This document shows, piece by piece, positions 15,331-51,855 of a stretch of DNA of 64,000 nucleotides. Both the position numbers and the translations under genes were made by a program. The notes beneath the pieces were generated by a model, which was not told the DNA's origin, ran no database searches, and saw nothing but the letters and a program-made list of their open reading frames with translations. Source of the DNA: Raja brachyura. Taxonomy: Eukaryota. The first letter of the stretch is position 1, and each line of letters starts with the position of its first letter. The stretch is from assembly GCA_963514005.1 (NCBI GenBank), contig OY740814.1, positions 15,314,001 through 15,378,000 of the forward strand. Reading direction: 5' to 3'.

Positions 15331-16004
15331 AGCTGCACAGGGAAAACAGCTCCAGCGATGCTCCCTTCATTACCAAAGCTGCCCGTGTTGAGGCTGTGGG
15401 AAGGTGATTTGTTCATATAACCATTTACCTTATATAGCCACACTGTTTTGGACCCTTTCCCACATTGCCATAATTAGCAGCTTCGCAAAAATACCTAAGA
15501 AATTCCCACCATCAAAAATCTTTTGATACCAGTGCATTATAAAAAAAGTGACTAAAGGAGAAGGTTTAAATGCAAATGGTTACTTTCTTCAGCTGCATTT
15601 AGAGAATCATCTGCCTAAACTCTGCAGCCTGCTTTGTGATTGTTGGCTCATTGAACATTATCTTGCCTCAACGGCCATGTATATCACTGAAGCCACATCG
15701 GGTTCAAGTGAGGAAAACTGGTGTTTAATGCAGTCTCCGTGTATGCCTGCATATCATTAGAATTCCTGGGCTAATAAGATGACAAACTGAAATATTGTAT
15801 AAAGCCGACAGACAATTCTGCTTTGCACATGAGCTTTACAGATAACAGACAGTCGGCAATGAATAATTTTAAGATAAATGACATAGCAAATAGCAAACTT
15901 ATCACTGGTAATGACCTGAGTGCCCTCATCTCTTAAAGTTCCTTCTGTTTATGACTATGAAGTATTTGCAATAGGTAAAATACTTTGACAACTCAGCTGC
16001 ATGT

Positions 16005-16122
16005 CTGAAGAAGGGCCCCGACCCAAAATGTCACACATTCTTTCTCTTCAGGGATGCTGCCTGAGTTAGCCCAGCACTTTGTGTCTATCTTCAATATATA
16101 CCAGCACCTCCAGTTACTTTCT
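16005..16122 (+). mobile_element. Penelope-terminus-derived mini-element with degenerate hammerhead core
   Basis: Starts CTGAAGAAGGGCCCCGACCCAAAATGTC; flanked by ACTCA(G/A)CTGCATGT direct repeats (15991-16004, 16123-16136). Confidence 0.8.
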
Positions 16123-17030: not shown

Positions 17031-18494
17031 GCAGTTGGAAATGAAAAGGTCTAAAGATCTGCTTGAGGAACTCGGTGGGTCAGGCAGCATCTGTGGAGGC
17101 AACGCAACAGTCAACATTTCCAGTCAAGAAACTGCATCAGGATTCTTCCTGAGCAGCCAAGTTCCTTAAACAGTTTGTATTTATTCTAGTACAGATTCAG
17201 CGGTCTCTTGTGTCTCCAATATCAATTCTAAACCCTGCACTCTGCTGCCATCAACTATTAGAGTGACCCTTTTGGCATTTAAGGCTCCAGCATATCACTC
17301 AAACTTCTCACGTGCTCCTTTACCTTGCTGTGTCTTTCTGGAGTTATTCTTCTCCTGCCGTTATACCCCAGTCCTCACTCATCACTCCTCCAATTCCAGA
17401 TCATTGCTCTATCTCATCATCAGAAGCCAAGCATTCACACACTGAAGCTCCGAGCAGCTGTGATCTAAGGTATTGACAGAACAGCCTTGAGGGCTGAATA
17501 ATATGTTCCTGAATATCCGAATAAGTGAAAAAATATGTACTATACAAGCAATAACAAGCTACTGTTTTCTTTATGTAGAAAAATGTAGCAGCCTATTATA
17601 AATTATCAAAAATATAAGAAGTTGAAATTGAGAACATTTGGGGATAAATCCTCTGAGAGAGAGAGAGCAATATAGGACAATGTTTGTTAAAGAGAATGGC
17701 AAGAAGCAAAATAATGTGGTAAATTGGAAGTAGTTGCATTCAGCTGCTGTCCAGAAGTCTGATGCATACACTCTCAAACACCCCGGCCATACTCTCATTC
17801 GCTGCTACTGTTGGGAAAAAGATGCAGGAGATCAGAGAACAGTGACTCCCAAATTCAAGAACAGCTTATTCCCATCAACCATCAGGCTCTTGAATCATAC
17901 TGCAGGTCCCTGACCAGAAACCCTACCCCAACAACAACATTCTCTGGATTTTGTACGTACTTCTGTTTTGCACAATTTTGGTCTAGTTACCCAGTACCTC
18001 TGATTATATTGCAATATTCATTTGTTGTGTTATTCCATTCATCAGTCTATAAAGCTGCAGCAGTGGAGAAGAATTTAGATGTTCTGTTCCCAGTACATAT
18101 GACTTGACTCTCTTGACGTGCACACTGGCAAATGACTGACACACTCAGAAGGCTGAACTGAACTTGCTTTGCCTCCACAGTTCACCTTGTCGCTGGACTC
18201 CCCAGACAATCTTGCTGGGATTCTTGCAGGAAATGCAACAGATCTTGTGCCAGGGTTGATGTGGCAAAGAATCGTAGATCCCACGACTGTAACTTCAAAG
18301 AGGATTATGAGGGACAGAATTATGAGTTACTTTAAAAAAGACACTTTAAGTTACTTCACTTTTTGTTTTTTTTAATATATGTTTCCAATATCAATGCTTT
18401 TAGATATTTTTTCTGTTTTCATTGTTTTAAAACATCCGAGAGAACCAAACCACACACAGCATTTACAACCAGCAAAGCTTGGTATGTAGTATGT

Positions 18495-18585: not shown

Positions 18586-20269
18586 CCCCCAAAAGGATTT
18601 CAGGATTGTGATAGACAGAGGATCTCCTCATACTGTGGCCCAGGTCTTGTTGTCGCTTAAACTACAGACCTGGAGGTCAGGGTGAAGTTTGTAACAACTA
18701 CAAGCAACAAAAGCTTTTCACTGTGCTTTGGTACACGTGACGATAAACTAAACTCAACTGAACTGTAACATGAGCAGGTTTGGATGGATGAATGTGTTTT
18801 TACGGAACTTGAAACATTATTAACACTCGAGTAAGAGAGCCTTGTGTTTTTAAATTGAGATCTTGCGTAATGCAAATACCAAGAGTGGTGGGTTGCTGAT
18901 TGTCATACTAATATTATTGAAAACAGCCTTGAGCATGTGTTTTAAATACCAAAGGAGAGTATTTATTGGGAAAAAAAGACTAGAGTAATACAAATGGCCA
19001 ATAGGTCATTCAATTTAATTTTGCTTAAATATTTTTTACAGCGGCACAGAATTTAATGCTAGTAAGATGAACATAATAAAGGTTTTTCATTCTGTGTTAT
19101 TATAGTTGCTTTCAAGTGGCAGACACGAAACATGAAATGATTCATCGGGTAATTGTAATTATTCTGCTAAACATGATATTCTAAAGCAAACAAAAATTAA
19201 TATGCTGGAAATCTGAAAAAGAAAATACTGAAAATATTCAGCAGATCAAGCAGCATTTGTGAAGAGAAACACAGTATTAACATTTCTGGTCAATGAGGTT
19301 TCATCAGAACTAGTTTGTGGAGAGGAAAACTGATCTTGCATGAGGCCCATTCAACATGTAACATGAAACATTTTTTCTCTCTCTGCGGATGTACCTGACC
19401 TGCTGAGTAGTTTCAGTATTATTTTTTATTTAAGATTTTTAGAAAAGGCAATGCTCTGCATTTCACAATTCCAGCACCATCTTTTGCATTTTCTCATCTC
19501 TCCTGTCCTCACTCATCTCCCTCCATTTATACCTCCTCCACGCAGCCCCTTTTAACTCCCTTGTACATCACCTGGGCAATCTTGGCTCCAACCAGTCACA
19601 GACATTCCCTCTGTTTTGTCCAGACCTCCCTTCCCCTGCACTTTAAAACCCACTTGTTTGCTCAAGGTTTAAAAGTGCATCAAACTGAAATATTAACTGG
19701 ATTTATCTCTCCCGACCTGTTGATGCCTGGTGATGTATGGCAGACCATTAAGTGTGAAAAGTTCTATGATTTTTGCGAAGTTTACCCACATTGTATGAAT
19801 AAATATTTTCTTTAATTGACAAAATAGGTTTTATTCGCAGTGATATAATGAGTGAACACGTTAAAATAGTGTGGATCAGTTGGACTGAATGGGATGTGAA
19901 ACTAACCTTTTTTAAAGGTTACATTTCTTGCTCAGTTATTTAATTTAATCTTAGATCATGAGGATTTTAGCCCAGCTGTTTTGGTGCTTTGTATCGTGAT
20001 TATTGTCAAGTTTTTTATATCACTGCCCTGTGTGCTCTTCCGGTAAATGGCGTGTTTGTAGGTGACCTATTTTGTCAAGAAGTAAAATTATTAAAGAGCA
20101 ATGCATCCTTCATCCACACGATGGCACCAACCTCAATCATTCCCGCTTACTAATTGAAAACATACAGTTTGCAACTTTCTCTGTTCCAGCACAGACCAGG
20201 GGTTGTAAAATTCAACATTTACCGCATTAAGAAAACGCGCTTCATAGTCCCCTCCCACCTTTTCGCCGA

Positions 20270-20530: not shown

Positions 20531-23500
20531 GTAAGGAATTTTCTTCAGAAGCTCCGAAACGGGAATCATTATTTCTGATTATTCCGGAACCTCTGGCATG
20601 AATTTTCCAATAAATGCGACGGGAGTTTTTGTGCAAAGAGAGCTTTTGATTTAAAAAAAACTTGTTTAACACGGCAAATTATTATCTAGAAATCACAGCC
20701 CGGGGGTTTGGTGGATTTCAGCAGGTTTTCAAGAAAAAGGAAGTAGATATGCTTACAATATCTTTAGGGCTGCGGTTATAGAGCAAAGGAGTAATTGGAA
20801 ACCTTTCAAAAATCGCTGACACAATGGGCCAAACTATCTTCCGTTCCACATTATCTTATGATTTTTAACTCAAATTGCTGTGTGTGGTCAGACCATTCGG
20901 CATTAACCAGTCTCATAGCTCACGTTTAATTTTTAGTCGATCGCAAGTTCGAACGATACCAACTTGTTTCAAGATATGTTGGAAACCCCCTTGTATGTTT
21001 CCTCTGGGTGCTATGGCTGCTCTCCCATCGTTTCCTCTGCTATTGTTCCTGGTGGCTACAGAAAAATAAAGACATGTTTTTCCATTGCATCATTCAAATC
21101 CCTTTCAGAACAACCCAACGCGCTTTAACACTAATTGAGGATTTTTTTAAAAAAAGTTGTCATTACCGTTAGGGAAATAAAATCAGGGCCTGGGACTGTT
21201 TGGTTTCAAGTGCGGAACATTTTTCACGCTGTCCTTCTTCAGAAGCCAGGGCACAAAAACCCAGGCTGATGCTGCTAGTAATTGCACGATTGGCGGGTTA
21301 ATACGTTAAACAGAAATGTCCTCCTGTAGACCACGGGCAGCATCCTGTCGATATTTTTCCACAGAACCCTTTGAGAACTGTCTGGCCTTTGTTGTGTGTA
21401 ATATTGGTGGGGTTACCTTGTACTAGGTTGTGCTGCTGGCGAACTTAATATTCACAGGACACAGGAACTTAAGAGCGACGAGAGTAGACAAAAATGCTGG
21501 AGAAACTCAGCGGGTGAGGCAGCATATATGGTGCGAAGGAAATAGTCAACGTTTCGGCTCCATAGATGCTGCCTCACCCGCTGAGTTACTCCAGCATTTT
21601 TGTCGACCTTAGATTTTCCAGCATCTGCAGTTGCTTCTTAAACGTAAGAGCAATGTTAGGTGCTTTAAACCCACTACAAGAGACACCAACACATGGCAAG
21701 ATGTCGCTGGAATTTTGTGGACAATGTATTTGAGATTCTCTACGGGTTGAGCATTGATGAAAATAAAGTAATGGAACAGCTAGCTAACTGAAGTGGATGG
21801 AGCACCTCCTTCGGATGGAATGCATCCTACGTTTCTGAGGGGAATATGGCCAAAGCCCTCCATACAATTAACCTCCTTAGTCTTCCAAATGGATGGATGG
21901 ATGGATGGAATGAGAGGTCTGAAAAATGTAAATGTTGTAATCTTTAATGAATAGACAGTGTATGAAGAAAGCCAAACAGCAGACCAAGTAGTTTAAGACC
22001 AGTAATGGAGAAAATTAAAGGTCCTTCAATCAAATGGGTCCATGCCCATCATTGAACAAACATTTATACTCCTATTTGTTCTCCCCCCCCCCCCCCCCAA
22101 ATGCAGGTTATATCACTCATTTACAGTGGCCAATAAACCTATCAAATCAATTTGCACATCTTTAGGATGTGGCAGGAAACGGAACCACAAGGGGAGTCAT
22201 GCACACTACACACACAACACCAAAGGCTAAGTTTGGGCCCTGATTTACCGCAGCTGCTCTACTGCACCGTAGAAAAAAAGCATGCTGGCAGTATTAAAGA
22301 TAAATCACACCCACGTAACAAAATGTTCTGAGAAGTTAAGCAGTAACGTGATTGATGTATATATGGACTTCCACAAGGTATCTGATCATGTGCCATGTAA
22401 TATACTTGTCACCAAGAATGAAGGCTGTGGAATAAAAGCATGAACAACATCTAAATGAATTTGCAAGGCTGTAGGAAGGATATGGGGACTGGGGCTGGCT
22501 GGATTGTTCTTGCATAATCAGGGCAGCACAGCAGCGCTGCTGGTAGAGCTCTTACCACACAGCACTAGAGACCTGGGTTTGATTCTTGCCTTGTGTGTGT
22601 GGAGTTTCCACATTCTCCCTGTGACCATGTCGGTTTCCTCCCATATCCCCAAGATGTGCGGGTTTGTAGATTCATTGGCGTCTGTAAATTGCCCTTCATA
22701 TAGTGGATTAGAAAGAGGGATAGCATAAAGCTAGTGTGAATGAGTGATAAATGGTCAACATGTATTTGGTGGACTGAAGAGCCTATTTCCATGCTGTATC
22801 TATAAACTGAACTAAACCGACAGCACAGGACCATGTGGCTTCTTTCCATGTTGGTACAATTCTGCGATGACATCATTTATATTTTATGCATAAATGCACC
22901 ACACTCCAAACGTTAAAGCACATAATCTGGGCATTTGGAAGTTTGTACGTTTTGTTAAACCTCCATTTGATTATTAAAGGCTCCAAATGAATCACCCATT
23001 CACTGACAGTCACTGCTAACTTGTAACAGCTAACGCACTATGAGAGAGATAGGAGTTGGCTTTTAACTTGAATGGAATGTGATCAGAGAGTGTTGTGAAG
23101 GATTCCTGATCCAAAAGCCTTCACTTATATCCAGCACCATACATCCGTCATGGCTTCTTTAGGCAGTGCAATTAATAATGTTATAGATTGGTTGGCAAGG
23201 ACGAGTTGCACTGAAGGGTTTTGTCTCCAGGCTGTACTAACTCTCTTTGATTTTTATTCATTAATTCAAGGTTCAAATGACAACAAATAAATTGTATCAA
23301 GGTGCTAAATGCAGGCAAATAAGACTAACTCAAGGGCGGCACAGCAGTGGAGTTGCTGCCTTAAAGTGCCAGAGACCTGGGTTTTGATCATGACTACAGG
23401 TGCTGTCTATGTGGAGTTTGCACATTCTCCCTATGGCCGCATGCGTTTCCTCGGGGTGCCCTGAGACGTGCAGGTTTGTAGGTTAATTGGCCTCTGTAAA

Positions 23501-26500
23501 TGTCCGTAGTGTGTAGGATAGAACTAGTGTACTGGGTGATTGCTGGTCAGGGTGGACTTGGTGGGGCGAAGGACTTGTTTCCACACTGTATCTCTAAGCT
23601 AAACAAAAGGATGGGCAACTTTGTTCGTATGGCCAAGTGCACAACTCTTTGGCTACAATCTCGGTCCTGACAAGTGGGACAGCATTGATTTGGATGAACG
23701 AATTCCAATTGGGGAGAATTGATAGAAATAGGATTTTTTGATACAAACAGTACTGGTAACATGGAGACCTTGGGAATGGAAGGAGGGCAATAATTTAAAT
23801 GCCATAACTGGAGTTAATTTTCTTTATTTTGTTTTACAGAAATAAGCAATTTCAAAGAATGGATGATAATGGTAATTATTTCTGTGCTGCGTTGATCCTT
23901 TCTGCCATTCCGTCAGAACCAATCGTACTCGTATTGCTGCCGTGTTTTATAGCTTGGTCCCTCTACCCAAGATGGATTCCAAGGCAGAGTTTTGACTGAG
24001 TCGCCCATGTACCAATTACTTGCGTTAAGCAAGATCCCTCTTGTATTTTAAAGAAAGCCTATGTGGGAATATGACATTTAAAAATAACATTTCGCAGAAT
24101 AGGAACAAGTTTTGCTAAGGCCTTGTAGAATTCTTGCTCTTGATTTGTCAGCTACTGGATAGAATTAAGGGGACTTTCCGTCAGACAAAATTAGTTCCTT
24201 CATTGTGGGAAGACTGGAATTAGACAAAGCTACTAAAGGAATTCAGTAGTTCATGTTGTCTTCACAGTTAATCCTTTACACTTGAATGATTTTTTTTTTT
24301 TTTAATTCAAGCCTGTCTTCCTGCTCTGATGCTAAGGTGGATGTTAAATATCCCCCAGCCTCTTTTGGAAGATCAGTATAAAACCAGATCTTAAACTGCA
24401 GAGGAAAGTAGGTAGGAGTAAAGAACAAATGTGAAGGTCCATTATAGAAAGGTCCAAGGTAGAAAAACAAGTAATGATAATGGTGCTGTGGGGTCAAACT
24501 GCATTGGCAATAGGAAAATAAATAAAAGACGGTTGTAGAGCAAATGTAAATACAAACAGAACCCATACCTAGCCAAAACCGTTAAACTTGCTGTTTGGTT
24601 CAAAAGGATGTAAAATGACTAGTGAGTTAAAGAGAGCTTTATGGTAGCAGAATGGGAGGCTGTGGAAAGGGAGGTCAAGGTGGAAATGGGACAGAAAATT
24701 AATGTTATCAGAAACTCAGGGTCACAATTGGGCAACAAAGGAGAGCATTCCATAAATTTGTCAGTCTATGTGTTACTGACCATTAAATATATAATCGCAG
24801 GTCAGCAAAGCAATTCATGTTGAACTGCACAACACGTGAGCCTTGTTGGCTTGTAAGATTTATTATGGCTAGATTAGCTGTTATTGCCCATCAATCTCTA
24901 ACCTTGTACAAAGTATCAGGCTGAGCCACATCAGAGAACTGTTAAGAATTAATCACATTGCTGGGATTTAGCCGAGACCTCTGGATTACTAGTCTAGTAA
25001 TAAATACATTTTTTTTTAAAATGCTAACATAATACAGATTTATTTAAGGGAGAATAGAATTTAAATGTAATAAAGTTCTATAAAACTTGGGAAGGACACA
25101 CATTAGACCCCCATGGAGACATGGCACGGAGTCACAGCAGTCTTGTATCTCCAGAGACCCAGCTTCAGACCAGACCTCAGATGCAGTCTATGTCTGCCCA
25201 GTTCTCCAATTTCCTACCAATCTCCAAAGATGTGCAGACACAAAAAGCTGGAGTAACTCAGCGGGCCAGGCAGCATCACTGGAGAGGATGTGTGATGTTT
25301 TGGGTCGAGACCCTTCTTCAGACGTGAGATTCCAAAGATGTGCAGGTGGATTAACTGGCCCCTGTAAAGTAATCTCTTGGAGTAGGTGGCAAAAAGAATC
25401 AAAGAGGCCTAATTAGATGTGGGAGAAAATGAGTGCAGAGTTGTGGGGAGATAAATAGCTGGTGAATGGGGACTAATGGGATTGCTATGCTGAGTGCACC
25501 ATGGACCCAATAAGCTGACTGACCTCCTTTTGCTTCAGAGTAAGTTTAGTTCCACCACTGTTGTGTAACATAGAATGGAAGCTGTGGAGAAAGTGCGTGA
25601 ACGTGCACAAAGCAGACTGAGAAAATAATTGTTGTAACAAAAACAGTGAGTAGATCGGGCTTTGTTTCCTTTAGAAAAGGCTTAAAAGTGACATGGTAGA
25701 AATCTAAAATTATGAATGATAAGTCAAGGTTGTTAAAGAGCGAATGCTTCTATTTGTTGGTGAACCCAAAAACATAGCCTGATAAATGCAAGATCGTCAC
25801 TAATAAATTCAATGGGAACTTCAGAATACATTTCTCTTGGAGTGTAATTAGAAGTTGGAACTCTCTGCCTCTGGGAATAATTAACTTGAATACTTTGGAT
25901 GCTTTCTGAAGGAAATTAGATGAGCATTTGAGAGAAGAGGAATGTTGAGAGAGTTTGATGTGAGTTTAGATAGAAGATTCCTTAGGTTTATAAAACCAGC
26001 ATAAATTAATTGGGCCAATTGGCTTATCATTGTGCTGTATATTCTATGTGTATCTATATTATAAATGAACACATTCAACTCTCTATTGAAAGTGATTCCA
26101 TTTACAAAGGGATACAAATCAATAACTGAGAACATTGATTTGAGATAATTGGCAAGAGATCAGAGGATGGATTAGAAGATGGTATTTAATTCAGCAATTT
26201 GTTGAAATCTGGGTGGTATCATGTGAAAGAGTATTAAAATCATTCAATAGCACACAAAGGAAATTGAACAAATACTTGAAAAGGAATTGCAGGTCCATGT
26301 AAAAATAGAATACAGCAGATGGTTGGGGAGGGGCAGGGAGAGAGGACTTTGAAAAGCTAAAGTCTTTGGTATGTTGTTTGGCAAAAAGATCTTTTGGGAT
26401 GCAAGAATATATGGTCTACAAATTTTGTGACCTTTCTCATGTATTTTGCAATTTTGTTTGTTTCAGACATTTAGGTAAATGAATAGGAAAGAGTAGAGGG

Positions 26501-29500
26501 ATATGGGCCAAATGCAGGCAAATGGAAATAGCTCAGATAGATGTCTTGATTGGTATGGATGATGTTGGGCCGAAGGGCCTGTTTCCATGCTATAGAATTA
26601 AATGACTCTGAATACAATTCATAATAGTGACTTAACATGGAGTTTAGTAATGCATTTTATTTGATTATGCTTTCTGGGATGTTTTACTGCATTATAAGAT
26701 GATACATAAATCAAAATTCTTGTTGATTCAAGATAATATTTTGCTTGATTCCATTTCTCGCGAGCAGTACAACAGAGACTACAGCTCGGAGGAGTACACC
26801 CACAGGCTGCAAACCTTCATCCAGAACAAGAGAAAGATTGATGACCACAACAGAAGCAGTCGTACCTTTCGCAGTGAGTTCACTCGAATATATTTACAGC
26901 TGGATATTTGGACCTTCTCCCTTCAACTATACAAAGAGCTGCGTGCTGATCACAGCAGAACAACGAAGCACGTTTAAAATTTAGATTGAGACTGTTCAAC
27001 AGAAAGCTCTCCTTCACACAAAATGATAGTCATCTCACTCCCTCTCCGTCTAACAAAAGATGGTTGGATGCGGCAGGGGAACAATATTAATGGACATAGA
27101 ACTAAAACAGATGGATGGTGTTGAGGGTCAGATTAGTGAAGATTTAAACCTGTGGCAGAATGGATTTTATAGACATGTCATCCAACCCTTATTCAAGTTC
27201 CTCCACTTCATCTGTTCCTAAATACCCTACACACTTAGATTGGATGGAGAGCACTGTCATGAGGCAGAGATCAACAGATTATAAAAAAAATAGTTTATAG
27301 TTATTTTTATTAACCATTTGATAAAACATCATGGATTAAAGTAGCTTCATTTTAACGATTGCCGTGCTAATTATAATCTCCATGTACAACAGCTGAAGGA
27401 ACATCACAGACTTAGTACAACAGTTTGGAGAAAAGCACTGCACTCTGTTAACTTTAAGGTTGTGAAGAAATACCATCAATATAAATGTTTAAAAAGGAAC
27501 TGCAGATGCTGGAAAATCGAAGGTAGACAAATATGCTGGAGAAACTCAGCTGATGAGGAAATGGGCAACGTTTCGGGTCTGAAGAGGGGTCTCGACCCGA
27601 AACGCCACTTATTTCCTTCGCTCCATAGATGCTGCCTCACCAGCATTTTTGTCTCCCATCAATATAAATGTTGTGTTTTGCATGCAAGCGTTACTATTTA
27701 CACTGTAATACCATTTTGGAGGAATAATGTCAAAACTTTAACTTCTCATATTTTGAATTCCCTTTCTACAGTGGGTCTCAACCAATATTCTGACATGACC
27801 TTCAGTGAGTTTAAGTCACTGTACTTGATGAAAGCACCACAGGTAACAGCTTCTTTCAGCTCTTTGCTGCTAACTTTCTACCTGGATTTCATGTTCATTC
27901 ACTGCCATCAAGCTTCTCTGCCCATTACTTATGGTTTCCCTTAAAAAAGGCACCATTGTGAAAAGATAAGGTCAATAGAGTAATTTGATATCCATGTATA
28001 AAACGCACAAAAAATATTGAGGAAGGCACAAATTAATGGCAACTACAGAGGGTCTTGATGGTATGTTTAACCTCAAATGAACTTTGTCTCCGACGCTTGC
28101 TCCTTCAGTTTTGTACAATTTTCTTTTGAAATGCTTCTCTGGTGGGCACCTCTCTTGTGTCTCGTTTAGATGATCATGAGTTCATTATGTGAACATGTGT
28201 CCATCTACATACACAATGTCAACATTCCCAATCCCAGTACAATGGAGGGCATTAGAAGCACTATCGATTAAATTTGTTTTAACCCAAATCAATCCACCAA
28301 GACACATGGTCAGAAGATGAAACAACACAATTTCAAAAATAAAACCCATAGCCCTGGCCCCTACTCTCAACTTTATCACATTGACATCTCCAAATTGGCT
28401 GCAGCCTTTCCTACAAAGTAACTTTTTCAAAAATACTTTGTTAAATGTAAAACATTTTGAGACACCCCTAATGCTTTAGAAATGCAAATGCTTTCTTTCA
28501 CTTGCTCTATAGTTGGCTTCAAACGTTCATGGCTCATTCATCCACATACTGATTTAAATCCTCTGTCATGATATTGTAGAGAAATTACCAGAGTTATGCT
28601 TTATATATATTTTTTCCCAGCTGTGTGGTTACTGCTGAATCTTATGTTGTTTCAGTAGTAACCAACTAACTAGGTTATACAAGTCAGGAAGCTTGTCAAA
28701 TGTGTAATTAATATCTTCACAATTATGAAACAAGAAAATCCTTGTACTTCACAGTGGAGAAACTCTTTAAAACTAACAGGATTATCTTGAACTTAAGAGT
28801 TGATGATTCAGCATGTACTATCACATGAAACATCCAGGTGCCTCACTAGAAAGAAAAGTGCAATGGTGCGGGTAGGATGGGATGCAGAATGATTCAAGGT
28901 ATTATTTTTCGAATTAGATCTTAAACTGTCCCCCAGCCCACCCTCCTTCTCAGTTGCAGACAATAGATTCCAAGGCACTATTTGCAGCAAGTTCCACCAG
29001 TGGCAAAGTGGACATTTGATGTCATTGTTCAACTTCCCCAATATATTGATGGATAGGACCGGTTTGGAGGGAATGGACGAAATGCAGGCAGGTGGAACTA
29101 GTATAGCTGGGACATGTTGCCGGTGTGGGCAAGTTGGGCTGAAAGGCCTGTTTTTACACTGTATCACTCTATGACTCTATTAGGAACCGACACTTGTCGC
29201 TGAGCTAAAAAAAAAAGTTTGATATAAATCTGAGTGATCTGCCTGTAGGCATTACCCTGATGAGGTATTTCATGGCAAAAGGGGCTTCCATCTGTAATGT
29301 GTGGTAAAATGTCCCATTCACAGGAAAAGTTGATAGCAGGCTAAACCATGCCACCTTAATTAGTTTGATTGTCAAGACTATCAATGCTTAATACAGTTGA
29401 CCTCTTCAAAATATTCCCAAACTTTTCAGAACTTTTAGCAAAACAAAGAAAAAGTCAGAAGTAAAAATTCTAAAATGCTTACATTTCTTAACATTAAAAA

Positions 29501-32500
29501 AAAAACAATTAAATGTTAAAGATTTTAAAAATGTTAAGATTATATGGTTTTATGTAAATAACATATGTATGTCTTTATATAATATCACTTATCCAAGGCT
29601 CTTCCATTCAAACCACTGGGTTTCCTGTTAATATTCCCTGTTTTCAGCTAGTCTGTTTGTTGTGGTCTTCATATGGAGCCTATAGTTGGAGCTGGGGGCT
29701 TTCCAGTGCCAAATTGCTTGATGGGGCATTAGTTCTTCTATTCACACATGTACAGAAGCCTTGCGCTTGCTGCAATTTCCAATACTGGAATCATTGCTGT
29801 AAACTTACTGGAAAATCCAAACCCCAAATACAAAATTAAAATATTTCAGGTGCTGGGAATCTGAAATGAAGAGCTAGTTCCAGACTGCAGTGAATAACAA
29901 TCCTTGTGCCTTGATAGTTTTGGGTTTATCTTTTCAAAATATAAATTGTTCTCTCTGCCTTGTAGAACTGCTCAGCTACACGAGGGAACCATTACTCAAA
30001 AGACGGCCCGTTACCCAAATCCATAGATTGGAGAAATAAAGGAAACTTTGTCACGCCCGTGAAAAATCAGGTAAAGACAAATGATTCACTCGATCAGGTA
30101 CTGAAAGAATAATAAGTTAACAAAAGTGGATGCTGGAAACCTGAAATAGAAACAAAATGCTGAGAGTATTAATCTGGTTATACAGCATATATCGGGGAGA
30201 AACAGATATAACATTTCTTTATAATCAATTGCAGATAAGGATAAAGCACACCGTGTCTATCAGCATTGTGTTGTTAGCTACTGAATTGGTGCTGAAGTGG
30301 ATTCTAAAGCAAGATGCACAGAAAGTAGTCTGATTTTACAGCTATGTCCCTTTACTCGGCAAAATGTCTACAGCCAACAGATGGCCAAAACTGTAGAAAA
30401 GCATACTATATTACAGCAAACTGCAAAGCTTAGAAGATGAAAGCAGAATACAAAATGATGGTTATAACATACACTTTCATGCATTTAGAACAGGTGATGG
30501 TTTTAGATAAAGTTCCCAACTACCTTTTTTTTTAAACCAGGAGAGAGGTCAATTATGTAGCCTTAACGTAATGTAATTCGCCCCTGCATGCCCAACTCAG
30601 AATTGATCATACACAATGGTGACACTATTGTCCTAAACTCATTGAGTTTCTTGAGCAAGAGTTTCAGGCAGTATTTACTCTCAACACACAGACTAAGATG
30701 GTGGTCAGGGCAGTGTCTACAGTCCTCGTCAGAAACTGATCCAGCTTCTCCTTGAAGACAGTGAGTCAACAACTACAGCAGCAGGTAGCAACACATTTCA
30801 ATGTTTAATTTCTCTCAGGAAAACAACTGGCCATCATCGCAGTACACTTACACCAATGGAGTTTAAGCTCAGTATCTTTCGTCTTCATTTGTTAAAATGA
30901 AATAATCTATAATTATATCATACAACTATGGCAGTTTGCCTTTAATTTGTATGTATCCAATCCCTAAAAAACAATAGTTCCCTAAACTGCTTCACACGCT
31001 TGTTATTAAAGTATATTTCTCATTTAACGATACATTATGGCAAATTGGTCAGAGAGGTAGATTTTTAAAATGAAAGGGGTAGAGAGGGAGATTGCCTTGG
31101 GTTTAAGGGCCTGTCCCACTTTCCCCAGTTATTCACGAATTGTCCCGAGTTTTCAAACTCGCAGAATGTTTGTAACGAGTCAGTGAATATATCGTAGCGG
31201 CTCGTTATGCCAGCCGTAGGTACTTGGGGCATCAGGTAAGTCGGGAAGCTTTTTCAGCATGATGAAAAATGTCCACGAGTAAACAAATAGCCCCGAGTAC
31301 CTACGGCTGCATAACGAGCCGCTACGATATATCCACGGACTCCTACAGACTCGTTACGAACATTCTGTGAGTTTGAAAACTCGGGAGAATTCGTGAATAA
31401 CTCTGGGAAAGTGGGACAGGCCCTTTCGGGTGTGAGCCCTCTAAGGAAGGTCTAAGTGGGATTGAAGGAGCAACTGCACTGACAGCAAAAGTACTTTTAG
31501 CTTGCAATCATGTCTATTTTCTGGTTTGAGTAAGGTTAATTACAGATTGCCATCTCTACAGGGTGGGTGTGGAAGCTGTTGGACCTTTTCTACTACAGGA
31601 TGTTTGGAATCTGCAATTGCAATACATTCAGGAAAACTGTTTTCACTGGTAAGTGTTGTTCCCAAACTTTGTTTATCCGAGTTATTGGACAACTTTCCAA
31701 AAATTGCATGAGGCTAACATATTTTCAAACTTCTTGTAGGCAGAACAGCAACTTGTAGACTGTGCTCAGAACTTTAACAACCATGGATGCTCTGGGTGAG
31801 TGAATGAGCTATGTGTTACACATTTTCAAATGGGACTTCTCGTATGTGGAACTAAGAAATTATTATCTGGTTCTTTTTTTAAGGACCTACCATCCTTATC
31901 ACAAAGCCTTTCTAAGGAAGAATTTATCTTCACACAATCTTTATTCCATATCTCTCACTTCTCAGAGGGATGGGAGAAATCTCTCTCCTAGTTCTGAAGA
32001 ATTCAAGTACTCTGCATGAAATCAAAATTGGATCACCATGATAAGTCTACCCAAAAGTAAAGAATACTGTGCTTTATGATTGTAATGCTTTTGATCTAAA
32101 ATAGGGACTCATTTTGTAACAAACTCCATGGCTATTTCCTATTTTACACTATTGTTTTCAATATTTCACCAGGGGCCTACCAAGTCAAGCCTTTGAATAC
32201 ATTAAGTACAACAATGGGTTGGAATCTGAAAAGGATTATCCTTATGAAGGAAAGGTGAGATTTTACATTTGTAACTACACAGTTGAATAGAATTGATTAA
32301 CTATCAAAATAGAATCACTTAACCTTTGCAAATGGACAAATAAATTGCTGGACGAGTTTTATAAAATGGCACTCCAAAATATACCTGTAAACTAACTTGG
32401 AGGATAGTAAAACCCGAAGTGAAAATAATGTGAATGTTGAAATTGAAGCATGTAATTAGTTGACTGATACTCTTCAGCATGTGCACTTTTATGATATCAG

Positions 32501-35500
32501 CAAGCAAGTCTCGTGCAACTATTTCCTTCTGGACATGTCACTGAATTATTATGTTTTTCCAATAAATGAGAGCGGCAGTGCAAGGGAGGGGAGAGGCCCA
32601 TGATTTCATGTTAGACCCATATTTAATCTTGGCTAGTGCTCATTTGGCTGATCTTGGTCAGGGTCTTAAAAAAAAAATCAGTTTAGTTTACTGCGAGAGC
32701 TCAAATAAGCTAAAGAAGATTTATGTACAGATTGTGTACAGTTTTGCTCTCCTAATTTGAGGTAGGACATCCTTGTGATTGAGGCAGTGCAGGGTAACTT
32801 CACGAGATTGATCTCTGAGATGGCGGGACTGTCATATGAGGAAAGAGTGAAAAGACTAGGCTTGTATTCAGTGGAGTTTAGAAGGATGAGGGGATATCTT
32901 ATAGAAACATATACAATTATAAAAGGACTGGACAAGCTGGATGCAGGAAAAATGTTCCCAATGTTGGGCGAGTCCAGAACCAGGGGCCACAGTCTTAGAA
33001 TAAAGGGGAGGTCATTTAAGACTGATGTGAGAAAAAACTTTTTCTCCCAGAGAGTTGTGAATGTATGGAATTCCCTGCCACAGAGGGCAGTGGAGGCCCA
33101 GTCACTGGATGGATTTAAGTGAGAGTTAGATAGAGCTCTTGGGGCTAGTGGAGTCAAGGGATATGGGGAGAAGGCAGGCATGGGTTATTGATAGGGGACG
33201 ATCAGCCATGATCACAATGAATGGCGTTGCTGGCTCGAAGGGCCGAACGGCCTCCTCCTGCACCTATTTTCTAAGATTTCACTAGAAGGCCTCATTTAGG
33301 AAGGCCAGCATTCATGCCCATCAATAAACGCTCATGAATGATTGGCTTGCTTGGCCCTTTCAGAGAACAGTTAAGATTCAATTGCATTGTGTGTGGGTCT
33401 TGAGACACAAAGATCAGACTGGGTTAATATGATGCACTTTCTTCTGTATTGAAATAGATGTGTTATTGTAACAACCAATAGTACAGGACACAGGAACGTA
33501 CATTATTTATAGTTCAAGCTGGTCACAGAAACTAATGCTGAATTACAGATGTAGTTAATTGATTTGACATTGATTCTAATGCAATACTCCAAATGTGGAT
33601 GAACCAAAGTCCTGTAAAGCTGCATCAGAACTCTCTGACTCTTGTACTCAATGCCCTGACCTATGAAAGCATTTGCCTTCTTTGCCACTTTCAGGGAGCT
33701 ATAAACAGGGACACCACATCAATGCTGTTAAAGTCAAGCCATTAATATATATTTTCCCCTTAATTTTGACCTCACAAAGCGGAATTTTGGCTTGCATTTT
33801 AATGGTTTGGTTACCGCGTATGGCTATTAATAATTAGTGTATATTTATTTGTTTTGTTATTGCATGAATGCGTCTGTAAAGCTGCAGCAAATAAGAATTG
33901 CATTGTTCTGTTCACAGTGTATATGATAATTAAACTCTCTTCACTTATCTTGAGATTGGATAGGCTGGGCTTGTTTTCCCCAGAGCAAAGGCAACCGAGT
34001 GACATTAACAAAAGGCATAGGTTTAAGTTGCGAGGAAGTAATTTTCAAGGAGATTTGAGGGAAAAGTTTATTTTTACAGAGAGTGGTTGAAAGAATCCCA
34101 GCCGCAAACACGCCTCGGACTACGTATAAATCCAACCCACATGATTACAGGCAGATAAAATTTAAAAGTAACTGGTTATGGTTATAACATACTAGGTTAA
34201 GCTAAATGGCTACTACATCTGGAACTTATTGCCAGAGAAGGTGTGGAATCGAATACAATCACTACTTTGAGATACTTAGACAGACACTTCCATAAGCAAG
34301 GATATGGTCTTAATAGGCGCACATAGGATGTGTAGGTGGGCAAGAAGGTCGACTGGCTTGGATGAAGAGCAAAAGGAACTGTTTTCTTGCTGTAAAACTA
34401 CGACTCACAAAAGGCATAGAATCAGGGGCACAAAGTCACAATAAAACTAAGCAGAATCAGCATGGTTTTAAAGAACAGAACTTGCGCTTCACTAACCTAT
34501 TACAGCTTCTAAAAATATAACTAGCAGGGGGCATTTAGAAGACAGGAGCGAGCCAGAGGGCATGTAATTTTGCATTTGCAGTAGGCCTTTGATCAGATGT
34601 CATGCAGTGGACTATTGAACAAGTTTAAAATTTGAGGTTGTGTATATATGTTGAAAACAGCATGAATTTGGATTCAGCACACTGACAGGCTGCAGGGTAA
34701 GAATACACAATCCATCCTTGGGGTAGCATAGATTAAAATAGTTACATGCCACAAGGACATGGTTGGGTCTATTTTTATAATTTATTTTCTTCAATGAGAG
34801 GACAATGTAGTATATTCATGATACATTATTGATCATAAAACGCTAGGTAAGATTATGAGGAGTCTACAAAGATGCATTTTGAGTGGGCAAAATTATAGCA
34901 GGTGGAGAATAAGGTGGTGAAATGTGAAATTTTCTGCTGCAGCAAGATATGGAAATGTAGGGGTTTTTTTTTAAAGTGTGAGACGGAGAAATGCAACTTG
35001 GAGAGATGTCTGTGCTCTTGTGTATAAAGCATAGAAGAATAACAACTAGATTCAGCAAAAGAGAGAAGTGATATGTAGTGGATTTGGATGTTACCATAAG
35101 GAAGGCTGGTTGCACCTATGCAGAGTTTTGGTAAACCTAGAGATCACAGGTGCTGGAATCCAGTACAAGAAGGATCTCGACCCAAAACATTACCCATTCC
35201 TTCTCTCCAGAGATGCTGCCTTGTGCTTGAGTTATGCCAGCATTTTGTGTCTATCTTCGGTTTAAACCAGAATCTGCAGTTCTATCCCACATGAAAAACA
35301 AACTGCTGGAAGAACTCAGCAGGTCACGATGTGGAGGCAGAGGTGGGCCAACATTTCAGGATGAGATCCTGCATCAGAACAAGATGCTAGGTCTTGACCC
35401 AAAACATCAACCATCCCTTTCGCCGCTGATATTGCCCGGCCCTCTGCCTTCCTCCAGCAGTTTATTTATTACTAGGTCCAACCATGGAGTACTTTGTACT

Positions 35501-43621: not shown

Positions 43622-43805
43622 GGGTAGAAAGGAACTGCAGATGCTGGTTTACACCGAAGATGACACAAAATGCTGGAGTATCGCAGCCTCTCTGGAGAGA
43701 AGGAATGGGTGACTTCTGAAGAAGGGTCTCAACCTGAAAAGTCATTCATTCCATCACTCCAGAAATGCTGCCTGTCCCGCTGAGTTACTCCAGCATTTTG
43801 GGTCT
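43622..43805. mobile_element. Palindromic Penelope-derived mini-element with degenerate hammerhead core
   Basis: 14-bp TSD ATGCAGGATACCTT (43608-43621, 43806-43819); CTGAAGAAGGGTCTCAACCTGAAAAGTC at 43716. Confidence 0.88.
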
Positions 43806-46439: not shown

Positions 46440-49270
46440 TCGTGGGAAGTATAGACCAGTAAGCCTAACATCTGTGGTAGGCAAGTTACTGGGGAGTATT
46501 CTGAGGGTTAAGATATTTATGCATTTGTATAGTCAGGGGCTGATTAGGGATTGTCAGCCATGGTTTTTTATATGTGAGATCATGTCTCACAAATCTCTCA
46601 GAGCTCTTTGAAGATGTAATCAAAAAGGTTGATAAGGGCAGAGCTATTGACCTTGGCTATATGTATTTCTGCAAAACTTTTGATAAGGTTCTACACGGTA
46701 GGCTGCTCTCGAAGTTTAGATCCAAAGCAATCCAGGGAGAATTGGTTGACTAGATAGAAAATTGCCTTCATGGAAGGAAGCAGAGTGTGATGGTGGAAGG
46801 TTATTTTTTATATTGGAGGCTTGTGACTAGTGGTGTGCCTCAGGGATTGGTGCCAGGTCCATTGCTGTTTGTAGTTTTGTTTCAACAATTCAATGAGAAT
46901 GTATAAGATATGATTAGTAAGTTTACAGATGACACTAAAGGGGTGGTTTGTAGATGGTAAAGATTTTTATCAAAAATTACAGCAGGACTTTGATCCGTTG
47001 GACAAGTGGGCAGGGAAACGATTAATGGAGTTTAACGCGGATTAGTGTGATGTGTTGCATTTTGGGAAGTCAACCCTTCACAGTGAATGGCAATGGTCTG
47101 AGAAGTGTTGTAGAGCAGAGGTATTTAGGTGTGCAGGTACATAGTTAGTTGAAAGTGTCATCACATGTAAAGAGGATGGTCAAGAAGACCTTCAGTACAT
47201 TGTGTTCATTTTTGATCACCCTACTATAGGGATGATGTTAAGTGGGAATATTTATAAGGATGTTGCCAGGACGTGAAGGCTTGAGCTATTGGGAGAGACT
47301 GGGCAGGGTAAGACTTTATTCCTTGGTGTGCAGGAAGATAAGGAGTGATCTTACAGAGGTGCATAAGATCATGAAGGCCATAGGGTAAATCACAGTCTTT
47401 TAGATGTATACTTTGTATGCTTGTGTATTGTAGGCAAAACAACGAATTGCACTGTACCAAGTACATGTGACAATAAAGTACACCTCCATCCCCCACCAGG
47501 AGGGTCTTAAAGCCCTCCGTTTCTTCCTCGACCGCAGAACCAACCAATCCCCAACTGATACTCTCCTCCACCTAGCAGAGCTGGTCCTTACCCTTAATAA
47601 CTTTTTGTTTTGACTCCTCCTATTTCCTCCAAATACAAGGCACGTGCATGGGCCCCAGCTATGCCTGCCTCTCTGCAGGGTACGTCGAACAATCCTTGTT
47701 CGAGGCGTACCAGGGCCCTATCCCCAAACTCTACCTCCACTACTTCGATGACTGCATTGGTGCTACCTCCTGCACCCATACACAACTCACTGACTTAATC
47801 CTTTTCACCACTAACTTCCATCCGGCACTCAAATACACCTGGATCATTTCCAACATTTCCCTACCATTTCTAGACCTCACTATCTCCATCGCAGGTGACA
47901 GACTACTGACCGACATCCACTATAAACCCACTTACTCCCATGGCTTTCTGGACTACACTTCTTCCCACCCTGCCTCCTCTAAGAACTCCGTCCCATACTC
48001 CCAATTCCTCCATCTATGCCGCATCTGCACCCAGGATGTGTTCCAAACCAGGGCATCGGAGATGTCCTCATTCTTCAGGGAACGGAGATTCCTCTCTTCT
48101 ACTATAGATGAGGCTCTCACCAGGGTTTCTTCTATACCCCGTAACTCTGCTCTCGCTCCCCATCCCCCCACTCGTAACAAGGGCAGAGTCCTTGTCCTCA
48201 CCTTTCACCCGACCAGCCATCACATAAAACAAATAATTCCCAACATTTTCGCCACCTTCAACGGGATCCCACCACTGGCCACATCTTCCCATCTCCTCCC
48301 CTGTCTGCTTTCCTTAGAGACCACTCCCTCCGTAACTCCCTGGTCAATTTGTCCCTTCCCACACAAACCACCCCTTCTCCTGGCACTTTCCCTTGCAACC
48401 GCAGGAAATGCTACGCTTGTCGCTTTACCTCCCCCCTTGACTCCATTCAAGGACCCAAGCAGTCTTTCCAGGTGTGGCAGAGGTTCACCTGCACCTCCTC
48501 CCACCTCATCTATTGCATCTGCCGCTCTAGGTGTCAGCTGTTCTACATCGGTGAGACCAAGCGTAGGCTTGGCGATCGCTTCACCCAACACCCCCGCTCG
48601 GTTCGCAATAACCAACCTGATCTCCTGGTGGCTCAGCACTTCAACTCCCCCTCCCATTCCGAATCCGACTTTTCTGTCCAGGGCCTCCTCCATGGCCAGA
48701 GTGAGGCCCACCGTAAATTGGAGCAGGACATCATATTTCACGGGGAGTTTACACCCCAGCGGTATGTTCATTGACTTCTCTAATGTCAGGTAGTCCCTTT
48801 TCTCCTCCCCTTCTCAGCTTTCCTCAGCCCACTGTCACCGCCTCTTCCTTTCTTCTTCCAGCCCCTCCCACCCTCACATCAGTCTGAAGAAGGGTCTCGA
48901 CCCGAACTTTGCCTATTTCCTTCGCTCAATAGATGCTGCCTCACCCGCTAAGTTTCTCCAGTACTTTTGTCTCCATTCAATTGTAGAAAGTTGGGAAATC
49001 AAGACCCAGACAACATAGGTTTAATGTGAGACGGGAAAGATTTAATAGAAACCTGAAGGGGGACATTTTCCGCACAGATGGTCGGTATATGCAGCAAGCT
49101 GCCAGAGGAGGTAGATGAAGCAGGTACAATAACAACAGTTGAAGGATATTTGGAAAGGTAGAAGATGGGTGGGGAAAGTTTGAAGGGACATGGGACTAGT
49201 GGAGATGGGGCATCTTGCTCGGCTTGTCAGGTTGGGCCAAAGGGCGGGTTTCCGTTCTGTTTAGACTATG
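46440..49270 (+). mobile_element. Degenerate CR1-like LINE, split by a nested insertion (about 47400-48985)
   Basis: YRPVSLTSVVGKLL, GTGCCTCAGGG, GATGACACTAAA; the 3' part resumes after 48985. Confidence 0.85.
47481..48975 (+). mobile_element. 5'-truncated Penelope-like retroelement (RT plus GIY-YIG endonuclease, frameshifted) with hammerhead-like terminal repeat
   Basis: TSIPHQEGL, MGPSYACL...YLHYFDDCIG, LPFLDL, HYKPT (PLE RT); CNRRKCYAC, LIYCIC...FYIGETKRRLGDRF..H...VAQHF (GIY-YIG); CTGAAGAAGGGTCTCGACCCGAAC at 48884. Confidence 0.92.
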
Positions 49271-49939: not shown

Positions 49940-50231
49940 TTTTTCCACCTGGCGCCATGTCTTTATCCTGCCTGCTGGGGGCGAGAGAGAGTTCCCGGAC
50001 ACGGCGGGCGAGCGGGCGCGGGAATTTGATCGCTGGAGAGAGGTCGCGGGCGCTGGGCCTAGCCGGGAGCACTGGGCCTAGCCGGGAGCACTGGGCCTAG
50101 CCGGGAGCACTGGGCCTAGCCGGGAGCACTGGGCCTAGCCGGGAGCACTGGGCCTAGCCGGGAGCACTGGGCCTGTCGATTACTTGGGACGGTTTGCAGG
50201 CGAGCAGCTTCAGCTGAGATGCGGTGTGGAG
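49940..50231 (+). promoter_or_regulatory. BLM: Putative BLM CpG-rich core promoter and non-coding exon 1
   Basis: Strongest non-repeat CpG-rich patch upstream of the BLM ATG; GGCGCGGGAATTTGAT E2F-type site (50015-50030); strong GAG|GTAAGT donor at 50231/50232. TSS not determinable. Confidence 0.7.
50053..50174 (+). repeat. 19-bp GC-rich minisatellite (CTGGGCCTAGCCGGGAGCA) x6.4
   Basis: Six perfect copies plus an 8-bp partial copy, read directly. Confidence 0.97.
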
Positions 50232-50285: not shown

Positions 50286-50482
50286 CAACAAGCTGGAGTA
50301 CCTCAGCGGGCCAGGCAGCATCTCTGGAGAGAATGAATGAATGGGTGGCGTTTTGGGTCCAGACCCTTCTTCAGCCTGAAGACGGGTCTCGATCCGATTC
50401 CTTCTCTCCAGAGATGCTGCCTGTCCCGCGGAGTTACTCCAGCTTTTTGTGTGGAAAGCAGCATCTGCTGTTCTTTCGCACA
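50286..50482. mobile_element. Palindromic Penelope-derived mini-element with back-to-back hammerhead-like cores
   Basis: 11-bp TSD CAGCAAGCTCA (50275-50285, 50483-50493); centre GACCCTTCTTCAG-C-CTGAAGACGGGTC. Confidence 0.88.
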
Positions 50483-51649: not shown

Positions 51650-51855
51650 CTAAATGTGTGGGAAGGAACTGCAGATGCTGGTTTAAACCGAAGATAGATA
51701 CAAAAAGCTGGAGTAACTCAGCAGGTCAGATGGAATTTCTGGAGTAAAAAAAATAGGTGATGTTTTGGGTCTGAAGAAGGTTCTCGACTCGAAACGTCAA
51801 CTATTCCTTTTCTGCAGAGATGCCCTCTGACTCGCTGAGTTCCTCCAGCTTTTTG
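51650..51855. mobile_element. Palindromic Penelope-derived mini-element with hammerhead core
   Basis: 11-bp TSD TGACATTCAGA (51639-51649, 51856-51866); GGGTCTGAAGAAGGTTCTCGACTCGAAACGTCA at 51767. Confidence 0.88.

Follow-up and report, generated by a model that had tools for sequence, protein, structure and literature searches.

The locus at 27473-27672 of the window (the whole stretch of DNA analysed, 64 kb in length) contains a short insertion without an open reading frame (ORF), hereafter a stub. It consists of two copies, one inverted and one direct, of a Penelope-like element (PLE) terminal repeat (pLTR), joined head to head and flanked by target-site duplications (TSDs). The pLTR is numbered with the C of CUGAAGA as +1. 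The insert itself spans 27490-27655, and the locus is organized as follows:

27473..27489, + strand: left TSD, 17 bp, same sequence as 27656-27672
27490..27579, - strand: inverted pLTR arm, PLE subfamily 2, about +16 to the tail end (+129), with an internal deletion
about 27490-27522: tail of the inverted arm, about 35-40 nt
27575..27579, + strand: head-to-head junction with a GTC overlap of 3 nt, setting GGGU ahead of CUGA
27577..27655, + strand: direct pLTR arm, tail-less, -1 to about +92, with an internal deletion
27579..27606, + strand: minimal hammerhead core with U16.1 mutated (GCC for GUC)
27656..27672, + strand: right TSD, 17 bp, perfect match to the left TSD

Within the core, CUGAAGA (27579-27585) is followed by an extra G (27586), stem II (27587-27598) and GAAAC. 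GGGU occupies 27575-27578 and the cleavage triplet 27604-27606; position 27605 is a T in most other copies among the sequencing-run contigs. Contigs of three DNA runs, listed under three organism labels, enter the insert from both flanks, so the insertion appears to be old and shared. No empty site was seen between 27100 and 28100 in contigs of four sequencing runs. Further downstream, 27772-27843 corresponds to a papain-family protease propeptide exon (best matches cathepsin L1, E = 0.002, and pro-cathepsin H, E = 0.03). The stub lies upstream of this exon on the same strand and is probably intronic; the hairpin would then be present in the pre-mRNA and could be an editing substrate.

Related insertions and a longer PLE copy are found elsewhere in the window:

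16003..16122, + strand: single-arm stub, begins at the hammerhead, tailed, 14-bp TSD with one mismatch
21484..21642: head-to-head stub, subfamily 2, right-hand tail, junction +19/+41, CUGAAGA lost, 11-bp TSD with one mismatch
25238..25330, - strand: single-arm stub, begins at the hammerhead, tail-less, 15-bp TSD
43622..43805: head-to-head stub, subfamily 4, junction +26/0, 14-bp TSD
47481..48975, + strand: PLE copy, 5'-truncated and frameshifted, with the end of the reverse transcriptase (RT), a Cys-rich linker, a GIY-YIG nuclease, the 3' UTR and a tail-less pLTR
50286..50482: head-to-head stub, subfamily 4, right-hand tail, symmetric junction on a TCAG-N-CTGA palindrome, 11-bp TSD
51650..51855: head-to-head stub, subfamily 5, junction as in the 27490 copy, 11-bp TSD

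The first-pass annotation had described these hairpins as built from the end of the element at 47481-48975. Five copies of 159-206 bp, each made of an inverted and a direct PLE terminal repeat, are indeed present. The five hairpins span three subfamilies (2, 2, 4, 4 and 5), and the subfamily of the 47481 element is therefore common to only two of them. Their arms are unequal, with a tail of about 40 nt on one, and four different junctions occur. The clean TSDs reported for four copies are perfect repeats of 17, 14, 11 and 11 bp. The minimal type I hammerhead with an extra purine and a palindromic 15.2-16.2 segment is as described, except that the copy at 21483 lacks CUGAAGA. All window copies were said to be mutated, and a strict intact core was found nowhere in the 64 kb. 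Of the two copies for which GGGU had been proposed to form stem I with the sequence following the cleavage triplet, the one at 27575 allows four pairs on paper, whereas the one at 51767 has a G-A mismatch at the second pair of helix I and a broken stem II. The suggested Rfam scan of the window returned no hammerhead match at E up to 10; its nine weak matches, mostly to microRNA and plastid hairpin models, lie under the gathering scores, and the minimal type is known from the literature instead.

Several other repeats were observed. Older, more diverged kin of the same PLE terminal repeat are located at 17062-17140, 19217-19427 (inverted arms separated by 147 nt) and 35298-35331. Nested inverted repeats of 65 and 34 nt at 31120-31409, possibly a DNA-transposon remnant, are unrelated to the PLE end, and a GC-rich 19-nt unit is present in about six tandem copies at 50050-50175.

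The parent element

In the broken PLE copies the GIY-YIG domain reaches E values of 0.004 and 0.0002, short of the Pfam cut-off, and the Pfam search recovered an RT domain in none of five broken translations. A better-preserved copy has 16 longer homologues, of which 13 have RVT_1 and five GIY-YIG on record. The order of an RT followed by a C-terminal GIY-YIG nuclease is that of an endonuclease-bearing (EN+) PLE. The translations carry C-x4-C-x2-C ahead of GIY-YIG, corresponding to the Cys motif between RT and nuclease of Neptune-type elements; a zinc-finger-like motif at this position is given as a Neptune-type feature in the available portion of PMC8557442.

The front of the element was reached by walking upstream in three successive searches. 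At 7 of the 19 loci extending this far, as judged by eye, pLTR and tail continue straight into the element body ahead of the long ORF; hammerhead and tail thus form the front of the PLE unit, as they do in the Anolis element (PMC11167929). An arm upstream of the ORF on the + strand at one locus (L201) was discarded as an unrelated older insertion that is not the element's own. Among 19 other long copies bearing the ORF, 16 stop at the tail-less point and three at the tail end. Two long copies consist of an inverted pLTR and a truncated ORF, tailed at one end and tail-less at the other, within TSDs of 12 and 14 bp. Further traits of EN+ PLEs were also found, namely pLTRs in direct or inverted orientation, partial tandems, 5' truncation, and a 30-40-bp tail on one end only, with two end modes about 35-40 nt apart.

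The subfamily consensuses show the traits of minimal type I hammerheads (CUGANGA, GAAA, NUH, an extra base after position 9, palindromic 15.2-16.2), from which the featured copy departs at U16.1. An intact consensus core, one of the checks listed in the first-pass annotation, is present in four of the five subfamily clusters, so the parent PLE may be able to cleave.

Hairpins in unselected genome sequence

A sample of 98 stretches of 10 kb at round coordinates (980 kb) was used to characterize the insertions independently of the window. It yielded 436 arm matches in 336 clusters: 239 single arms, 86 head-to-head pairs, two tail-to-tail pairs and nine others. The abundance assumed in the first-pass annotation is thus evident, with 86 of 336 insertions head to head; same-strand arm pairs numbered only six. 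Scaled up from the 980 kb, the genome would hold about 900,000 insertions and about 240,000 hairpins. TSDs of 9-17 bp flank 27 of the 84 hairpins located away from stretch ends, compared with 0-1 in five shuffled pairings, and 18 of the 30 best-preserved ones, in agreement with the claim that the hairpins were inserted as discrete units. With narrow search settings, TSDs were found for 13 of 188 single arms and 27 of 84 hairpins. The outer ends are fixed at about +87..98 and +126..132 overall: in the 84 hairpins, +122..130 is the end point of the longer arm in 60 cases and +83..100 that of the shorter in 61, and both sides are tail-less in 11.

The junctions are diverse. There are 74 distinct junction calls in 86 hairpins and 26 in the 31 best preserved, counts that are too high because calls were taken from local alignment ends, which blur in old copies; near-perfect young copies likewise differ in junction. 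Deletion of the tips of long palindromes after insertion could be an alternative source of this variety. The most common junction, symmetric on the 9-nt TCAG-N-CTGA palindrome, accounts for eight of the 86. Both arms belong to the same subfamily in 71 of 86 hairpins (shuffled mean 22.6, maximum 40), and a strict core is kept on either arm in only seven. The first-pass annotation had named beforehand differing junctions in every copy as grounds for rejecting a propagating family, and this is largely the situation encountered.

The junction of the featured copy was examined separately. It occurs in 4-5 of the 86 unselected hairpins, second in frequency to the symmetric one, with two of them apparently a local duplicate. 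A similarity search that favours its query's own junction was left out of the frequencies. An exact 18-mer spanning the junction has 1,053 matches and its reversed control none. Among the first 30 of these matches, both arms belong to one subfamily in 24, across subfamilies 1, 2, 4 and 5, and a left-hand tail is present in 18, a right-hand tail in two and no tail in 10; in 18, each arm holds sequence absent from the other. By eye, the flanks look unique apart from local duplications. Its recurrence across three or more subfamilies, and with either side tailed, indicates a joining hot spot: descent from one founder would require the two arms to have changed in parallel with the parent subfamilies, and repeated joining at a 3-nt overlap is simpler.

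GGGU|CUGA provides four contiguous helix I pairs, compared with two in the native context. The long stem of the hairpin pairs GGGUC with GACCC, and the same bases are thereby drawn from helix I. In equilibrium predictions, adopting a hammerhead-competent fold costs the featured copy 19.6 kcal/mol and six other hairpins 21-33 (19.6-33.4 in all seven), with stem I and II probabilities near zero, as against 5-8 kcal/mol in three native contexts. The hammerhead is therefore predicted to be buried inside the hairpin. The hammerhead fold is thus predicted to be disfavoured in native contexts as well, which agrees with reports of such motifs requiring a dimer or protein.

Some unusual loci were recorded alongside the census. 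On contig C1, a hairpin with arms of two subfamilies is located inside an inverted duplication of its flank (L177 and L178, about 89255700-89256000), and another hairpin is found three times, about 3.5 kb apart, at 3050000-3058000 (L298), a tandem duplication of host DNA. At about 660000-660350 (L240-L242), an inverted arm, a tailed pLTR with about 100 nt of body and a second pLTR follow one another, an arrangement that resembles a template jump returning to the start of the RNA. In L155, L166, L171, L244 and L325, the hammerhead region stutters briefly at junctions or 5' ends.

Arm starts and the origin of the hairpins

The genome contains 60,709 exact matches to a 26-mer from the youngest subfamily. 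From the start of contig C1, 104 arms of this subfamily were read, six of which derive from one triplicated locus; their outer ends fall at +87..98 in 68 and at +126..132 in 28. Upstream element sequence is present in 32. Of the 72 arms without it, 55 start at -6..+3 and two at the cleavage site, so that the pile-up of 5' ends sought at the latter was not found among the young arms. The modal start is the A at -2 inside CCAGTCT, which we take to resemble an initiator motif. The base preceding this A is a G in 8 of 11 young single arms, an excess noted post hoc. Genome-wide, G precedes it 7,103 times, A 5,928 times and T 4,057 times (1.49, 0.96 and 0.66 times the base composition). The excess is weak in the unselected sample (8/17, p = 0.07) and, given 5 of 15 at other starts in a small control, not clearly above control. 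A TSD was found for seven of 30 such loci; three loci (L320, L329, L330) read TSD, one non-target G, element, while the G comes from the target, by eye, in L316, L317 and L324. TSD-anchored 5' ends could be placed for 31 of 139 single arms (about eight expected as background), and the four at -6..+6 carry little power. Short arms starting at -6..+3, often behind an extra G, suggest run-off copies of a capped, uncut RNA start, and judging from these positions the edges of the stubs likely mark the RNA start of the PLE. An extra G marks capped full-length L1 5' ends in the available text of PMC11702581. A start at the hammerhead is not general, as the Penelope element of D. virilis starts well upstream, 46 bp ahead of a 75-bp intron ending at the hammerhead, according to the accessible parts of PMC2377424 and PMC4209133.

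With a probability of roughly 0.7, each hairpin is an ORF-less insertion of an endonuclease-bearing PLE, consisting of an inverted and a direct terminal repeat, likely assembled anew at each integration and likely a dead end. This reading draws on features observed directly: the layout, the TSDs, the fixed outer ends, the junction diversity, the subfamily match of the arms, and repeat and tail as the element front. The PLE nuclease would make a staggered cut of 9-17 nt, and PLE RNA would be reverse-transcribed from both target ends, in most cases with one end priming at each of two internal start sites. The two cDNAs may then extend 90-130 nt toward the RNA 5' end, probably the capped start at the -2 A, or stop earlier. 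Their 3' ends would be joined by short complementarity (TCAG-N-CTGA, or GTC/GAC in the featured copy) or by trimming and filler, and the hammerhead would be carried along uncut. The more specific proposal, that the stubs are integrated pairs of run-off, strong-stop-like cDNAs, is put forward tentatively, at slightly less than even odds. Here, a dimeric PLE protein would prime both ends of the staggered cut at two internal RNA sites, copy to a capped start three bases before the hammerhead core and join the products head to head. If so, several hundred thousand copies would record, to the base, where the RNA starts, where the two primings occur and how the products are joined, and a capped monomer would be nearly devoid of helix I and copied without being cut.

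The run-off step alone would be altered if the inner boundary reflected splicing at an acceptor (a pyrimidine tract followed by CAG|T, as in D. virilis) or an RT stall at the hammerhead fold. The sequence upstream of the boundary is pyrimidine-rich and ends in CAG, and the D. virilis intron ends at helix I (PMC4209133). The 72 short arms, however, show no shared first-exon sequence in front when inspected by eye, the start mode lies at -2 and the three loci with a non-target G run directly into the element, so this variant is unlikely, though it deserves some weight. Rather improbable is fold-back self-priming, in which one cDNA folds on the palindrome at the pLTR start and copies itself, with other junctions arising from later tip deletions. 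Fold-back has been proposed for inverted PLE junctions (in the portion of PMC3846280 available), it would place the most common junction on the 9-nt palindrome, and it explains the subfamily match of the arms equally well. Yet the shorter arm stops at a fixed point common to single-arm and ORF-bearing copies, which is a start site in Anolis in the available text of PMC11167929 and no obvious stop for self-copying. Fold-back also needs a further deletion step for the 18 of 30 featured-junction loci with private sequence on each arm, and a few hairpins, such as L177, have arms of two subfamilies.

The first-pass annotation favoured a propagating retrozyme-like or MITE-like family. This was not supported: the junctions are diverse, recurrent ones occur in several subfamilies, ORF-bearing copies have the same layout, and the ribozyme is predicted to be sequestered. 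A self-propagating hairpin whose junction completes helix I, which cleaves, perhaps as a dimer, and is mobilised in trans by PLE protein, would make sense of the four helix I pairs, of the at least 1,053 exact copies of GGGU|CUGA and of the recurrence of this junction in almost all 30 top matches of one copy, a selected set. In the unselected sample, by contrast, the junction is rare; it is found in several subfamilies with matching arms, a tail on either side and unique-looking flanks. There is also no tandem same-strand hammerhead pair for circle release, strict cores are scarce, and the GGGUC/GACCC pairing predicts the folding penalty given above, which leaves this explanation very improbable. 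Least probable is a MITE, i.e. DNA moved by a cut-and-paste transposase recognising inverted ends. Short non-coding units with inverted arms and high copy number would fit, but the TSDs are not of fixed length, the ends are asymmetric with a one-sided tail, one end wanders over some 10 nt and the junction inside differs between copies; inconstant ends and TSD length already largely refute it.

Architecture and hammerhead motif have both been published, and the stub is the shortest form of a known PLE insertion layout and ordinary as an element. In a search of the main texts of openly accessible papers, neither PLE hairpins lacking an ORF in cartilaginous fish nor a capped start at the hammerhead were found to be described. 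The stubs represent a dense natural record of the PLE transposition pathway, with a possible bearing on the origin of inverted pLTRs and the tail and on the role of the hammerhead, and give sharp predictions for the existing in vitro PLE system. Such stubs are frequent in introns and call for annotation as PLE rather than as MITEs, microRNA-like hairpins or retrozymes.

Comparison with known systems

EN+ PLE insertions with an inverted pLTR, a one-sided tail of 30-40 bp and a TSD are described for Adineta Pen2a and D. virilis Penelope in the available parts of PMC3846280 and PMC8557442. The stubs share with this layout the head-to-head pLTRs, a short overlap or palindrome at the junction, the tail on one end and the TSD around the unit. 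They differ from the layout, as far as it is covered there, in the lack of an ORF between the arms and in their very high number (the extrapolated 240,000 or so hairpins).

The hammerhead agrees with the published minimal motif in its conserved core, the extra base between positions 9 and 10.1, the palindromic 15.2-16.2, the lack of helix III and a short helix I. The native helix I of the stub parent, however, has two contiguous pairs only, unlike the published motifs. Pairs on opposite strands have been noted 100-700 bp apart, whereas in the stubs the two members are fused head to head, in most cases with one core truncated.

The Anolis PLE protein cuts and extends both target strands, initiates at two internal sites that flank the tail and works preferentially on uncut RNA, as far as the available text of PMC11167929 describes. 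The elements studied here resemble this Poseidon element (PAc) in the hammerhead at the pLTR-ORF junction, and would resemble it further in the two tail-bounding start sites, the extension of both strands and the uncut template. In contrast to PAc, the RT-nuclease linker is Cys-rich, as described for Neptune and Nematis, and the long ORF appears by eye to begin after the tail instead of in stem II. Two-strand priming and two start sites are supplied by the Anolis in vitro system, but head-to-head joining is not, within the same portion of that report.

In the available text of PMC7229834, metazoan non-LTR retrozymes consist of 150-450-bp units repeated in tandem on the same strand, which carry canonical hammerheads and give circular RNA. 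Like these, the stubs are short and non-coding with a type I hammerhead; unlike them, they are inverted pairs with minimal cores that are predicted to be buried. Same-strand tandem repeats bounded by hammerheads are not the arrangement of the 336 clusters, a hammerhead foldable in the unit RNA is disfavoured in the equilibrium model, and the 74 junction calls in 86 hairpins do not point to descent from a master unit with a fixed junction. Nor do the one-sided tail, the wandering end and the 9-17-bp TSDs correspond to the fixed symmetric terminal inverted repeats and short TSDs of fixed length of MITEs.

In L1 twin priming, two target-primed cDNAs are joined by microhomology, resulting in an inversion within the TSD. 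The stubs likewise carry an inversion within the TSD. While the two L1 cDNAs copy different parts of one RNA, both cDNAs of a stub would copy the same 90 nt. The extra G at full-length 5' ends would be a further likeness to L1, based on the available portion of PMC11702581.
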